This document shows positions 56,050 to 61,011 of a stretch of 64,000 nucleotides of DNA, piece after piece; positions within the stretch are counted from its first letter, which is position 1; every line of letters starts with the position of its first letter. The DNA is taken from the NCBI GenBank assembly GCA_963787375.1, contig CAWBCR010000022.1, positions 8,041-72,040 on the forward strand, written 5' to 3'. Made by a program: the position numbers and the translations under genes. Below the pieces are notes generated by a model. That model made no database searches. It saw only the letters and a program-made list of their open reading frames with translations, and was not told where the DNA came from. The stretch is from an uncultured Chloroflexia bacterium (GTDB lineage: Bacteria; Chloroflexota; Anaerolineae; Aggregatilineales; UBA3940).

Positions 56050-56898
56050 TCAGCCCTTAGCGGCCTCGCGTTCCTGGCGAAGCACGCGGTACAGCGTTTC
56101 GGCATTGCTGTGATGCAGTTGCTGGACCAGTCCGTTCAGCGCGATGCGATTCTTGCCACAGTCCTCGATCTCGATCCGGTCGAGCGCCTCAGGGCCCTGA
56201 TTGCGGTCGACCACCCGCTCAACCTTCTTGCGCAGCAACTCCAGGTAATGCAGGTCCTCATCCAGGCGGCTCTCGACCTCGCCACGCAGGATAACCTCAC
56301 CGTGCCCCTGCACGATACTCTCGTACTGCCCGCCGCGCAGCGCTTCGAGCGAGTGTACATAGGCCTCCCAACTGCCATCGGCAAAGAACGGGACTGGCAT
56401 CATCGTGTCGGAGGCAAACAGCACTCGCTCTTCCTCGACCATGCATACAATCGAGTCCATGCTGTGCCCCGGCGAATACCACATCGTGAGCGTTACGCCG
56501 CCGAGATGAAGCGCCATGATCCCCTCGTTAAACACCACGTCTGGCAGGCGCAGCGTAATCGTTGCCATCTCACGAGAATTGCGGCGGGCATTCTCAAGCC
56601 CCAGCCGCCCCCGTGTATCCAGCAACTCGCGGCACAGACTGTGACTGACGACCCGCGCGCCGTCAAACAGGCATGTACCGAGTGTATGATCAGCGTGGTA
56701 GTGTGTGTTGACCACGTACTTTACCGGCACGCCATGCCGCTCCTGGACATACTGAAGGATTTGCCGCGTCTCGACGGGGAAGGCCAGCGTGTCAATCACA
56801 ATCGCGCCAGCCGGGGTGATGATCGCGCCGGCTGTTACCTGGGCATATAGCTCGCTGGTGAAAACGAAGATATTGTTCGATACAAGCTCACGGAGCAT
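56050..56898 (-). CDS. MBL-fold metallo-hydrolase (cyclase-like)
   Basis: THYHADH, PGHS, SD, GHG. Confidence 0.88.
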   Translation of the reverse strand: MLRELVSNNIFVFTSELYAQVTAGAIITPAGAIVIDTLAFPVETRQILQYVQERHGVPVKYVVNTHYHADHTLGTCLFDGARVVSHSLCRELLDTRGRLGLENARRNSREMATITLRLPDVVFNEGIMALHLGGVTLTMWYSPGHSMDSIVCMVEEERVLFASDTMMPVPFFADGSWEAYVHSLEALRGGQYESIVQGHGEVILRGEVESRLDEDLHYLELLRKKVERVVDRNQGPEALDRIEIEDCGKNRIALNGLVQQLHHSNAETLYRVLRQEREAAKG

Positions 56899-57312: not shown

Positions 57313-59096
57313 TCACTCCTCAATCTGCACGTCGTCCGCGAGGCGAATATGCAGTTCTTCAAGCTGCTCCGCGTCGACCACACTCGGCGCACCGGCCATC
57401 AGGTCAGCGGCCCGCTGCGACTTCGGGAAGGCGATCACCTCGCGGATATTCGGCTCGCCGGCCATGAGCATCACCAGCCGGTCGATGCCCGGTGCGATAC
57501 CTCCATGCGGCGGTGCGCCATACTCGAATGCGTCCAGCATGTGGCCGAATTGCTCGCGGGCCTGCTCAATGTCGAGGCCGATCAGCTCAAAGATCTTCTC
57601 CTGTATGGCGCGGTCGTGGATACGAATGCTGCCGCCGGCCACCTCGTAGCCATTGCACACCAGGTCGTACTGCTGCGACTGCACCGCCGCCGGGTCCGAC
57701 TCGAGCAGATGCAAATGCTCGGGCTTGGGCATGGTGAACATGTGGTGTGATGGCGCGTAGTGGCCGTCCTCAAGCTCGGGCTCAAATAGCGGGAAGTCGA
57801 CGATCCAGCAAAAGCACATCTGGCCAGCGTCGGTGAGATTCAGCCGCGCGCCAAACTCCGTGCGCAGCGCGGACAGCGCCTCGTTGACGACCTTCTCCGC
57901 GCATCAGCCACGATAAGGATCAGGTCGCCGGGCTGCGCCCCTGCATGCGCGACGAGTTCCGCCATCAGGTCATCGCTGAAGAACTTTGCAATACTCGACT
58001 TCCGTGTGCCATCCGAGTCGACGGCCACCGTCGCCAGTCCTTTCGCACCCGCCTCCTTCGCGATCTCCTCAAGCTCGCCGACTTCCTTTCGACTGTAGCC
58101 CGCGCAGCCGGGCGCGACGACTGCCCGCACCCGCCCGCCGGCTTCGAGCGCCCCGTTAAATACGCGGAAGTCGGTGCGCGCGGCGATCTTGCCCATGTCG
58201 ATCAGTTCCATGCCAAAACGCATGTCGGGCCGGTCGGTGCCAAAGCGCTCCAGCGCCTCGGAATAGGCAAGCCGTGGGAAAGGCTTGAAGCTGAGTTCCT
58301 TATCCGACACCGTCTCAACCATGCCGGTCATCAACGACTCGATCAACTGCAGGATATCCTCGCGCTCGACGAAGCTCATCTCCAGGTCAAGCTGGGTGAA
58401 CTCCGGCTGGCGGTCGCCGCGCTGATCCTCGTCACGGAAGCAGCGGGCGATCTGGAAGTAGCGCTCATAGCCGGCGACCATCAGCAGTTGTTTGAGTTGC
58501 TGGGGACTCTGTGGCAGCGCAAAGAACTTGCCGGGGTGCACGCGGCTGGGCACCAGGTAATCGCGCGCGCCTTCAGGTGTGCTCTTGAACAGGATCGGCG
58601 TCTCAATCTCGACAAAACCGCGCTCGCTGAGGTACCTGCGAATGAACAGGACAGCCTCATGGCGCAGCAGCAGATTGCGCTGCATCCGCGCCCGACGCAG
58701 GTCGAGATATCGCCAGCGCATACGGGTCTCTTCGTTGGGCTCCTGCTCACCACTGATCTCAAACGGCGTTGTCCTGGCTGTATTCAGGACGGTGATCGCC
58801 GATGCCTTCACTTCGATTTCGCCGGTTGGCATCTTGTCGTTGACGGCTTCGGGCAGGCGTTTGGCGACAGTGCCCACAATCTGAAGCACGTACTCGCTGC
58901 GAACCTCCGCCGCGCGCGCATGGACGTCCGGTGCTTCGCCAGCATCGATCACGACCTGTGTGATCCCCCATCGGTCGCGCAGGTCGATGAATGTCAGGCC
59001 GCCGTGCTCCCGCCGGCGGTTCACCCAGCCCGCCAGTGTGACGACCTGGCCGGCGTTCTCTGCTCGAAGCTCGCCGCAGTTATGTGTTTTCAGCAT
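57313..59096 (-). CDS. aspS: Aspartate--tRNA ligase, probably non-discriminating (frameshift near 57895)
   Basis: THNCGEL, FIDLRD, STPEGARDY, LPQSPQ, CFRDED, QPEFTQLD, YDLVCNG, GAPPHGGIAPGIDR. Confidence 0.95.
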
Positions 59097-59148
59097 GGAC
59101 TCTTCTCTCCCGTTCGATTTGATGGTTCAAGAAGCGGCCTTCAGCCGC

Positions 59149-59183
59149 AAAAGAAAGCCGCCCGTCGTGTGCACGCGGGCGGC
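59149..59183 (-). terminator. Attenuator terminator in the aspS leader
   Basis: GCCGCCCG...CGGGCGGC followed by TTTCTTTT on the minus strand, between leader ORF and aspS start. Confidence 0.8.
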
Positions 59184-59204
59184 AGTGGTGGCCTGGGAAT
59201 GTGT

Positions 59205-59312
59205 TTACAGATCGTCAGGTCGCACCAGGCTGTGCCCGCTGTGGCAGGGATTAGCATTGGGATTATTCCCATCAACGACGCGCAGAGGCAGCCTGACAGT
59301 CGTGCGGAACAT
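59205..59312 (-). CDS. Putative aspS leader peptide (35 aa)
   Basis: MFRTTVRLPLRVVDGNNPNANPCHSGHSLVRPDDL*; RBS GGAGAGGA 10 nt upstream; four AAT Asn codons within six codons. Confidence 0.7.
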   Translation of the reverse strand: MFRTTVRLPLRVVDGNNPNANPCHSGHSLVRPDDL

Positions 59313-59342
59313 GACGGTTACATCCTCTCCTGATTGTGCAGG

Positions 59343-59372
59343 ATTGTAGCATACACGGCAGATGCAAGTCAA
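59343..59372 (-). promoter_or_regulatory. sigma70 promoter of the aspS leader
   Basis: TTGACT, 18 nt, TACAAT with extended -10 TG. Confidence 0.75.
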
Positions 59373-59431
59373 CAGACAGAAGGCGCGACATCCGCCGCGC
59401 CTCCGTCTCTTGCTGCGCCGCCGATGGCAGG

Positions 59432-60981
59432 CTAGTTGAACGACATCTTGATGTCGCCCAGGTCTGAGTCTCCTGCGTCGCCGGGAATGTCGAGCCAGGT
59501 ATTCTCACAGATATAGTTTGACCCATAGATGAAGAACGCCGAATAGGTCGCTCCACGTGGGACGCCATCGAGTTGGAAGGCACCGGTGCTGTTCGTCTCG
59601 CTGCTGGCGACCACCTGGGTCATATCAAGATGTGTGCCGCTGAAGAACGTGCTGCACGAGACTTTCGGGTTCAGGACGCCGAATACCCCACCGGAAAGAG
59701 GCTGACCGGTGGCCCCATCGACAGCGCGCCCGGTGATAGTGATCCCGCCGCCACCGGCGCTGCCCGCCGAGCCGCCATCGTAGGTCACGCTCAGGTCGTA
59801 GGGCTCTGCCGCGCTCGATCCGCTGTAGCTGACGACGGCTACGTAGAACGTGCCGGCGCTGGTGGGCGTGTAGTCGAAAACTCCTGTGGGTTCTCCGTCT
59901 CAGACGACGCCACCACGTTGGCATCTTTGTCCAGCAGGTAGAGGTCGTAGTCAGTGCCGGACGGGATATTGGTGAGAAGGCCGTCAATAGGTGCAAGCGT
60001 GGTGATCGTGATCCAGAACACGTCAACGTCGTCCGCCCATGAGATATAAGCCGAGATGTGCTGACCGGAAGTGATCGGCCCGGCAGCCTGGTTGAGCGTG
60101 TCGTTAGGCTCGTAGGGATCCGGATCCGATGAGGGTGGCAGGCTGCTCGATTCGAGCGGCGGCGGCGCGCCGGCACTCTGTCGCACCACCGGGACGAGGT
60201 TCACCGGGCGCAGAATGCCCAGCCCGCCCAGCGTCACACCCTCGCGCACGTCGGGATTAACGGCAGTTGGCACTGCCACAAGATTTCCGTACAGGTCGAC
60301 AGCCGTGCCACCGCTGTTGCCGCTGGCAATGGCCGCGTCCGTCTTGATAATCACGCGCCGGTTAGCGCCGCTGACATCTGCGCTCTCGAAACCGCTGACC
60401 GCCCCGGTAGTGAAGGTGATCGTGTCGCCGCCCACGCCGGGATAGCCGAAAATATAGATTCGGTCGCCCAGGCGAAGCTGGTCGGAGTCGCCAATCTGAA
60501 GATAGGGCAAATTCGAGGGACTAGCAGGGTTGCCCTGCAAGTCCGACTTGATACGCAGCAGCGCCAGGTCAAGGTCCTGATCGTAATAAGCGATTTCGGC
60601 GATATACCGCTCCTGAGGCGGCTGGTCGGCGCTGGTGGTCATCAGGATGATCAGCACCGGCGCACCGCACGCCACATGGCAGTTGGTGAGAATCTCCCCA
60701 TCAGGCGATATGATGGTGCCCGAGCCGCTCCACATCGGCGAGAGCGAGCTTCCCTGCGGCTGCGCGGCGATGATCTGCACCGAAGCCTGCGCGATCTGGT
60801 CGATCTGGTCGGGTGTCAGCTCGTTGGGGCGCGGACCTTCGGTGGCCACCTGCGGCTGCGCGGTGGGCTGCTGTGCAGGCTGCTGGATCGGTTGAAGCGT
60901 GGGGCCTGTGGCGACACCGGGCGTGTTGCAGGCCAGCACAGCCAGGGCCAGAACAGAGATGACCAATACTATTCGACGCAT
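59432..60981 (-). CDS. Trypsin-like serine protease lipoprotein with PPC-like and beta-sandwich C-terminal domains (frameshift ~59875)
   Basis: Lipobox VLAC; GSG, TNCHV, DLAL, GNSGG; DPYEPND, DYDLYL; frame continues into ORF 59432..59788. Confidence 0.82.
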
Positions 60982-61011
60982 GGGTGTATTCTCCTCTACG
61001 ACCAGCACCAC

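Follow-up and report, generated by a model that had tools for sequence, protein, structure and literature searches.

What decides whether RNA polymerase reaches aspS, the gene for aspartyl-tRNA synthetase (AspRS), in an uncultured bacterium of the class Anaerolineae (phylum Chloroflexota)? The question is raised by a stretch of 64,000 nucleotides of assembly GCA_963787375.1 (contig CAWBCR010000022.1, positions 8,041 to 72,040 of the forward strand), hereafter the window, in which aspS is preceded by a promoter, a short open reading frame (ORF) with several asparagine codons, and a GC-rich hairpin. An earlier reading of the letters alone, here called the original prediction, had proposed a translated Asn/Asp leader whose occupancy by the ribosome chooses between a terminator and an antiterminator. 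Comparative evidence supports this proposal, and the leader is most probably a transcription attenuator of the leader-peptide type, in which the translating ribosome reads the supply of charged tRNA-Asn and tRNA-Asp on behalf of aspS.

All leader elements lie on the minus strand and are described here in the direction of transcription. The upstream gene encodes an HtrA-like protease and ends at 59432. It has an intrinsic terminator of its own at 59404–59379 (an 11-pair stem with 8 GC pairs and a T-rich tail), which is the 5′ boundary of the aspS control region. The promoter (59372–59343, 10/12 matches) consists of the −35 box TTGACT at 59372–59367, an 18-nucleotide spacer, and an extended −10 box, TG-n-TACAAT, at 59348–59343, and is the only promoter-like site between 58800 and 59800, where shuffled sequences give a mean of 0.3. 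The leader ORF MFRTTVRLPLRVVDGNNPNANPCHSGHSLVRPDDL (59312–59205) starts with the ATG at 59312, comprises 35 codons and the stop codon TAA (59207–59205), is preceded by the Shine-Dalgarno sequence GGAGAGGA (59330–59323), and has homologous ORFs in relatives. It contains the putative regulatory cluster GAT GGG AAT AAT CCC AAT GCT AAT (59273–59250), which encodes D-G-N-N-P-N-A-N and lies where Asn and Asp are locally enriched in the leaders.

Four segments that could pair in alternative ways can be placed on this leader. Candidate segment 1 (59307–59277, with the core CAGGCTGCC at 59295–59287) lies just upstream of the Asn/Asp codons and could, by duplex folding, act as the 5′ strand of an anti-antiterminator with segment 2. 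Segment 2 (AGCGGGCACAGCCTGGTG, 59240–59223) is located within the ORF and is the antiterminator partner of segment 3, as judged by duplex energy and by covariation in relatives. Segment 3 (CCAGGC...ACCACTGCCGCCCGCG, 59196–59174) comprises the 5′ arm of the terminator and an upstream extension, and its CGCCC is invariant in relatives. The intrinsic terminator (59183–59149) is made up of the hairpin GCCGCCCGCGTG-CACA-CGACGGGCGGC at 59183–59157, formed by segments 3 and 4, and the T-tract TTTCTTTT at 59156–59149. RNAfold assigns −20.4 kcal/mol to this hairpin, which is also present in the minimum free energy structure and in the centroid of the whole leader. The gap between the leader stop codon and the terminator stem is 21 nucleotides, and the hairpin with its T-tract stands 60 nucleotides ahead of aspS. 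The consensus terminator scan listed only the terminator of the upstream gene and not the leader hairpin, because the ungapped stem of the latter leaves an 11-nucleotide loop, above the limit of the tool. The original prediction had placed the promoter, the ribosome-binding site, the ORF and the GC hairpin correctly, as well as the complementary strings GCGGGC and GCCCGC, GCCTGG and CCAGGC, and TGGGAAT and ATTCCCA. In its description of the peptide, the D-G-N-N-P-N-A-N run stands, whereas the terminal DD does not, since the real end is D-D-L.

The Asn codons of the leader are unusual for this genome. All four (59267–59250) are AAT, as had been noticed from the letters, and AAT accounts for 23% of the Asn codons genome-wide (3830 AAT against 12800 AAC in 1560 long ORFs). 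The intact part of aspS itself has 2 AAT and 6 AAC. At the genome rate, the chance of drawing AAT four times is 0.23^4, or about 0.003.

The host genome is represented by 3.9 Mb in 32 contigs, with an estimated completeness of 83%, and the window lies on contig C22. In the named records, the closest AspRS sequences come from metagenome-assembled genomes labelled Anaerolineae, Ardenticatenales, Anaerolineales or Chloroflexota. The nearest genomes compared belong to other genera, with AspRS identities of at most 77%, and conservation between genes is therefore informative. At the level of the order, aspS was present in 41 of 41 genomes, and the best 30 loci were examined, of which one (L024) had no gene start, leaving 29. 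The combination of a −10 box, an ORF with an Asn/Asp cluster, and a terminator was found at 19 of these 29 loci, while eight have no −10 box, Asn/Asp ORF or terminator of this layout. The remaining two (L007 and L008, from genomes G002 and G020 of one genus) have the conserved promoter and a GC-rich terminator with no leader ORF; the transcript between the two measures only about 60 nucleotides. Among 19 aligned relatives from the family, the −10 box GCTACAAT is near-invariant, and motifs resembling a Shine-Dalgarno sequence precede the start codon in most of the same-family leaders.

A wider set was obtained by adding 79 loci from named records and removing five duplicates and two regions that were too short, which gave 101 non-redundant upstream regions. 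An automatic filter, which required a terminator of −11 kcal/mol or lower within 200 nucleotides of aspS and an upstream ORF with at least three Asn or Asp per eight codons, flagged 52 of the 101. Seven of these (L007, L008, L017, L025, L053, L068 and L080) were dropped as ends of upstream genes or as mis-framed, and 45 were kept after curation. The conservation of an Asn-rich upstream ORF, which had been proposed as a check, is thus seen in the form of one and the same layout in 45 of 101 upstream regions, with leader peptides such as ...FHNTNNDNDACPYGRGL..., ...YLNNDNNNDNDVCVCGRGL..., MTHIRFANNNDNDNNDPSRSVGRSLVG, MFRQLVNNNNDNNNAPQSGREN and MFQPIVVDNNNLDNNPQRAGG... in relatives. Clusters with at least five Asn plus Asp per eight codons occur in 31 of the 101 real regions compared with 9 of 2020 dinucleotide shuffles, and clusters with at least five Asn per eight codons in 16 of 101 compared with 0 of 2020. 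Terminators are found in all 45 curated leaders, with energies from −13.0 to −29.2 kcal/mol.

The leader frame behaves as a translated frame. For this analysis, the frame was set solely by the position of the Asn/Asp codons, and the other two frames served as comparison. A stop codon lies 15–37 nucleotides before the terminator stem in the Asn/Asp frame of 45/45 leaders, 37 of them within 18–26 nucleotides, compared with 14/37 and 3/36 in the other frames. Because an ORF ending before the terminator was already required for entry into the curated set, it is the narrow spacing and not the bare stop that is informative here. An in-frame ATG is located 3–30 codons upstream in 43 of 45 leaders in the Asn/Asp frame, as opposed to 4/45 and 5/45 in the others. 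Among relatives, the cluster differs in units of whole codons, and the order and number of Asn and Asp differ too; the peptide is not conserved beyond this cluster and the G-R residues that segment 2 specifies. In many leaders of the Anaerolineales type (L058, L066, L072, L076, L081, L083, L109, L112 and others), the ATG stands 6–10 nucleotides past TATAAT and is not preceded by a Shine-Dalgarno sequence, an arrangement that suggests leaderless translation.

With respect to the antiterminator, RNAalifold on 19 family leaders returned the terminator only, and the alternative pairings were therefore tested by duplex folding and by counts for named structures. In 45/45 leaders, an ORF-internal segment 2, usually close to GGGCG, can pair with the terminator 5′ arm (segment 3, close to CGCCC), with duplex energies ranging from −12.2 to −29.5 kcal/mol. 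At most 5 of 200 shuffles are as stable in 27 of the 45 leaders, and at most 10 of 200 in 31. The duplex in the window amounts to −20.1 kcal/mol, with 3/200 shuffles as stable, and is thus comparable to the terminator. Segment 2 lies inside the ORF in all 45 leaders and starts at a median of 13 nucleotides (range 3–22) after the last Asn or Asp codon. The window leader conforms to this median, with the first paired base of segment 2 (G 59239) 13 nucleotides past 59252, the first base of the last Asn codon. The geometry of segment 2 was judged from the size of the ribosome footprint, and an offset of 13 nucleotides would put its start roughly at the downstream edge of a ribosome that has stalled at the last Asn/Asp codon.

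Covariation supports the pairing between segments 2 and 3. When the leaders were anchored on the GGGCG/CGCCC core, which was possible for 42 of the 45 (with 39 different combinations of flanks), pairing was seen in 128 of 195 core-flanking cells, compared with a permuted mean of 87.4 (standard deviation 6.1, maximum 111); none of 5000 permutations reached the observed number. The segment 3 positions concerned pair with segment 4 in merely 18, 12, 24, 21 and 26 of 38 leaders. Among 26 leaders of the Anaerolineales type (alignment A4), 92.3% of 285 antiterminator cells are paired, against 25–41% in slid controls. One antiterminator pair in this alignment is UA in 12 leaders, CG in 7, UG in 6, and another combination in 1. 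It is not a by-product of the terminator, because its bases fall in the AA/GA internal loop of the terminator, where they are unpaired. In the family to which the window belongs (alignment A2, 19 rows), 74.1% of 239 antiterminator cells are paired, against 30–44% in slid controls, and 17 cells have changed on both sides, a number reached in 2 of 500 shuffles. The antiterminator drawn in the original prediction (GCGGGC with GCCCGC, extended by GCCTGG and the CCAGGC region) corresponds to this conserved and covarying pairing, which, judged from the base-pair potential, is mutually exclusive with the terminator.

From the computed elements, their conservation, the frame behaviour, and the complementarity and covariation of segments 2 and 3, we infer ribosome stalling, the footprint geometry, readthrough and the limiting tRNA as follows. 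Transcription would start about 7 nucleotides past the −10 box, and a ribosome would translate the 35-codon leader. If Asn-tRNA or Asp-tRNA is scarce, the ribosome would stall in the D-G-N-N-P-N-A-N run (59273–59250) and cover segment 1 (core 59295–59287). Segment 2 (59240–59223) should remain free during the stall, because it starts just past the downstream edge of the ribosome, and could pair with segment 3 (59196–59174); the terminator would then not form, and the polymerase would enter aspS. With adequate charging, the ribosome would pass over segment 2 to the stop codon at 59207–59205, 21 nucleotides before the terminator stem, whereupon segment 3 should pair with segment 4 (59167–59157) and transcription would terminate at the T-tract (59156–59149).

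The anti-antiterminator is less distinct. In the original prediction, TGGGAAT and ATTCCCA had been noted as an alternative pairing. A better, although weak, candidate for the anti-antiterminator partner is the CAGGCTGCC core of segment 1 (59295–59287), which lies upstream of the Asn/Asp codons. Among the 45 leaders, the best segment 1 candidates lie upstream of the Asn/Asp cluster in 20 cases, overlap it in 24, and lie downstream in 1. Equilibrium folding was carried out on transcripts cut before segment 4, with and without a mask for the ribosome.

Several observations weigh against an attenuator of this kind, or at least reduce the confidence with which it can be assigned to the window. The pairing between segments 1 and 2 is matched by at most 5 of 200 shuffles in just 11 of 45 leaders; in the window, where a −26.9 kcal/mol duplex between CAGGCTGCC and the CAGCCTG in segment 2 is possible, 10 of 200 shuffles are as stable. 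Masking of the ribosome footprint, which had been suggested as a check, gives a small shift on average and none in the window leader. Pairing of the terminator 5′ arm is predicted to average 0.71 in the ribosome-free state and 0.80 when a ribosome is stalled; stalling raises it in 38/45 leaders, but in the window leader it is 0.82 in both states. Segment 2 of the window reads GGGCA and not GGGCG, and the window leader is for this reason one of the three dropped from the anchored covariation count. Its cluster is modest, with four Asn and one Asp in eight codons, and the folding stability of the complete leader does not stand out (z = −1.32; 16 of 200 shuffles are equally stable). The leader is absent at about half of the aspS loci examined, the 45 curated leaders were picked partly by features that were later counted, namely the presence of a start codon and of an ORF that stops short of the terminator, and relatives are not independent samples. 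Finally, Asn sensing by a stand-alone aspS is unexplained, because asnS and asnB-type genes are present in the host genome.

The weak pairing of segments 1 and 2 and the small difference between the folds without a ribosome and with a stalled one would also suit a translated leader that acts by another route, such as access of Rho, mRNA stability, translational coupling or a functional micro-peptide. Such a route is nevertheless very unlikely. In 45/45 leaders, the ORF is followed at a constant distance by an intrinsic terminator and its T-tract, the covariation between segments 2 and 3 extends to positions left unused by the terminator, and the peptide sequence is unconserved outside the Asn/Asp cluster and the G-R residues of segment 2. 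For an attenuator, the small equilibrium shift implies that the switch must depend on kinetics and on masking of segment 2 by the ribosome, as it does in the classical systems.

The codon content of the leaders indicates what would be sensed. Asn makes up 14.5% of the residues in the aspS leaders, compared with 2.1% in long ORFs of the host genome. Asp makes up 26% of the non-Asn residues in or next to the Asn cluster, compared with 2.1% elsewhere in the leaders. The earlier proposal that aspS senses Asn-tRNA(Asn) therefore holds for the Asn codons but not for Asn alone, as Asp codons, enriched at the cluster, share the signal, and comparative evidence points to a leader that is bivalent for Asn and Asp.

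This interpretation is strengthened by leaders of other genes. A second site found by covariance model in genome G075 precedes asnA (TIGR00669, 381.9 bits, cut-off 292.8), and its leader reads MSTIRFANVNNNNNNNGLSQDVGRSIPTG. Although asnA is rare in the class, being found in 8 of 301 genomes, four of these genomes have Asn-only leaders, with clusters such as FNNNNNNNA, NANNN and NANANANA, at the loci L127/L128 (G075), L129/L142 (G190), L130 (G101) and L136–L137 (G235). The four more divergent asnA genes of the class have no leader. Near the cluster, none of 22 residues is Asp in the asnA leaders, as opposed to 72 of 278 in the aspS leaders (Fisher p = 0.003). The same GGGCG/CGCCC switch is seen in the asnA leaders of G075 and G190. 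A search of the host genome with the AsnA of G075 as query did not find asnA. In a scan of the host genome for homopolymeric leaders, MLTLPAAMIHHHHHHGYRL... was encountered directly upstream of hisS, with a terminator 23 nucleotides past the stop codon. This leader, MLTLPAAMIHHHHHHG..., with the ORF MLTLPAAMIHHHHHHGYRLHARGAAQGAHA and six consecutive His codons, is located on the minus strand of contig C17 at about 161494 (locus L138, 2993–3085), and hisS follows at L138 1290–2900 on the same strand (TIGR00442, 368.8 bits, cut-off 286.75). The His6 ORF and its terminator are a candidate for a second leader-peptide attenuator in the host genome. The repeated codon thus follows the regulated gene in aspS, asnA and hisS, which is a signature of attenuation.

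Known RNA families do not account for the region. A search of 58800–59800 with Rfam 15 (4227 models, including leader and aminoacyl-tRNA synthetase motifs) gave no meaningful family at E ≤ 10; the best chance match, RAGATH-25, is on the opposite strand and reaches 17.7 bits, where the gathering score is 49. A match to a T-box or another known RNA had been named as a finding that would count against attenuation, and the T-box covariance model (RF00230) likewise has no match at E ≤ 10 in this interval. Elsewhere, the host genome (G000) has seven T-box matches, all away from the aspS leader and one of them over the gathering score (C17:627648-627899, C31:182535-182810, C13:360343-360693, C26:4242-4456, C17:376849-377114, C18:30907-31190 and C16:15220-15460), and T-box and leader-peptide control would therefore coexist there. 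No T-box was found at 20 leader-less aspS loci of relatives either.

A translation-independent RNA switch, in which the A/U-rich tract and the GGGCG/CGCCC elements bind a protein, a tRNA or a metabolite and the ORF is incidental, could appeal to the conservation of the blocks as nucleotides as well, to the T-boxes that usually control aminoacyl-tRNA synthetase genes in other phyla, and to the T-boxes of the host genome itself. It is very unlikely, since in addition to the negative Rfam search, the upstream ATG and the fixed-distance stop belong to the Asn/Asp frame alone, differences in the cluster come as whole codons, and in the asnA and hisS leaders the repeated codon is exchanged to suit the gene that they precede. 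That a chance ORF without meaning happens to lie before an ordinary constitutive or leaky terminator, or an insulator between genes, is extremely unlikely. In favour of such a coincidence, open frames often arise at random in GC-rich DNA, L007 and L008 keep promoter and terminator without the ORF, and the fold of the complete leader is unremarkable. Against it, the upstream gene is closed by a terminator of its own (59404–59379), which is followed by a promoter, the Asn/Asp clusters are far above shuffled expectation, the arrangement is repeated across several orders of the class, and the four Asn codons all use the genome-rare AAT.

The leader is unique in the host genome. A covariance model (R1) with six modelled base pairs finds there the aspS leader alone, with E = 1e-12, the next match having E = 0.039. 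A scan for an Asn/Asp ORF followed by a terminator gave 25 matches, of which the aspS leader alone was classed as an Asn-rich leader ORF, most of the remaining 24 being Asp-rich ends of longer frames. In larger samples R1 was applied with strict filters, and the resulting counts are lower bounds and not estimates of prevalence: at least 10 of 151 genomes in a sample of the class, where the 11 sites comprise 8 aspS leaders (including that of the window), 1 asnA leader and 2 false sites, and at least 11 of 151 in a sample of the phylum, including 9 of 9 genomes of one family (f43). The sole match outside the class is false. Three R1 sites (L125, L126 and L145) were rejected as terminators at gene ends. 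Within the class, the leader arrangement recurs across several orders.

The regulated gene, aspS (57313–59096, minus strand, ATG at 59096), encodes a bacterial-type aspartate–tRNA ligase (NF001750, 554.7 bits, cut-off 443), and its C-terminal piece matches tRNA-synt_2. It is followed in the window, after a gap of about 415 nucleotides, by a gene for an MBL-fold hydrolase (56050–56898), with neither gatCAB nor asnS adjacent. In relatives, various genes come after aspS. It is asnS, over cut-off, in G315 (locus L148), and an OB-fold start like that of asnS is present in 17 of 59 scanned ORFs downstream of aspS, 15 of which follow curated leaders. In L096 the next gene is gatC, and in G156, G117 and G462 (L146, L147 and L149) aspS is followed by a gap of about 570 nucleotides and then gatA. 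At these loci the leader would therefore govern the production of both Asp-tRNA and Asn-tRNA. In L040, L044 and L082, the gene after aspS starts with a glutamine synthetase N-terminal domain.

The original prediction had further linked Asn sensing to a non-discriminating AspRS that feeds GatCAB. The host genome contains asnS, for asparaginyl-tRNA synthetase (AsnRS), over cut-off, and two asnB-type genes over cut-off; among 41 relatives, asnS is present in 35 and asnB-type genes in 39. In the host, gatB is located on another contig than aspS. Thus, neither the lack of AsnRS or asparagine synthetase nor a linkage of aspS to gatCAB, by which a non-discriminating AspRS might be recognized, was found in the host genome. 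An explanation of Asn sensing by a missing asparagine synthetase or AsnRS is ruled out, as both gene families are present. A non-discriminating AspRS may occur in the host, being neither required nor excluded by its gene content.

A wider reading would be that the Anaerolineae have lineage-wide, codon-matched attenuators that replace T-boxes for a part of the translation apparatus, and that the AspRS described here is non-discriminating. The set would comprise Asn and Asp leaders of aspS (alone, with asnS or with gatCA), Asn-only leaders of asnA, and His leaders of hisS. Because the Asn codons are kept before stand-alone aspS, AspRS would in this wider reading tune the synthesis of Asn-tRNA(Asn) despite the presence of AsnRS. 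We consider the combination possible but doubtful. Alternatively, an ancestral bivalent leader may simply have been retained before stand-alone aspS.

Among known systems, the closest in logic is the pheST attenuator of Escherichia coli with its pheM leader peptide. In both, a tRNA synthetase gene follows a short ORF rich in relevant codons and an intrinsic terminator with an alternative antiterminator, and the ribosome, presumably so in the aspS leader, senses tRNA charging. The aspS leader differs from pheST in that it would read Asn and Asp instead of Phe, with two codon families in one leader, in its occurrence in Chloroflexota (Anaerolineae) with no sequence or Rfam relationship found, and in the position of the regulatory codons between segments 1 and 2, with an ORF that runs through segment 2. 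Unlike pheST, many of its relatives are also apparently leaderless, with the ATG 6–10 nucleotides past the −10 box.

The four-segment logic, with a candidate anti-antiterminator (1:2), an antiterminator (2:3), and a terminator with its U-tract (3:4), is that of the classical attenuators of amino acid operons, such as trpL, hisL, thrL, leuL and the ilv leaders, represented in Rfam by Trp_leader, His_leader, Thr_leader and Leu_leader. Precedents for multivalent sensing are thrL, which responds to Thr and Ile, and the ilv leaders. In contrast to the classical cases, the regulated gene is a tRNA synthetase (asnA in the sister leaders), and the Rfam leader models have no match at E ≤ 10. In Firmicutes, aspS and asnS are usually controlled by the T-box, which is untranslated and binds uncharged tRNA directly. 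The T-box shares with the aspS leader the proposed input (tRNA charging), the proposed output (terminator or antiterminator), and the location upstream of an aminoacyl-tRNA synthetase gene, whereas the aspS leader carries an ORF of the translated type and gives no T-box signal.

To our knowledge, leader-peptide attenuation has been described chiefly in Proteobacteria and some Actinobacteria, and for tRNA synthetases essentially only in pheST. A search of the full-text literature, which did not cover older subscription papers on attenuation of aminoacyl-tRNA synthetases, yielded neither a leader peptide of the Asn or Asn/Asp type before aspS or asnA nor any account from Anaerolineae. Passages of one paper list a Shewanella aspS motif in the 5′ untranslated region simply as 'tRNA synthetase leader' (PMC2659441), and those of another contain no aspS or Asn content (PMC4833913). 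The aspS leader is apparently a conserved member of the classical leader-peptide class of attenuators that has not been described before.

If this assignment is correct, the aspS attenuator adds a new amino acid specificity to the class, with codon-matched sister leaders for asnA and hisS, and extends attenuation across a little-studied Chloroflexota class that is known mostly from metagenomes. It would also place ribosome sensing and T-box control in one genome. The system offers a handle on the balance between the direct (AsnRS) and the indirect (AspRS and GatCAB) routes to Asn-tRNA. For annotation, it is relevant that the leader ORFs have 19 to about 48 codons, and that many are apparently leaderless, such that they are easily missed by gene callers.

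Some minor features of the region remain to be described. Directly after the T-tract, a second small hairpin, GCGGCTGAAGGCCGC, is followed by TTCTTG (59148–59134, minus strand; from sequence and fold); none was seen in the printed upstream sequences of relatives. In the assembly, aspS has one frameshift near 57895–57902, and both halves are 75–77% identical to the AspRS of a relative. The HtrA-like protease gene (59432–61011), which has Do/HtrA family matches for 59839–61011, is frameshifted as well, and an asnB-like gene of the host genome (C16:48902-50610) is split across three frames. Taken together, the frameshifts in these three genes suggest indel errors in the assembly rather than pseudogenes.

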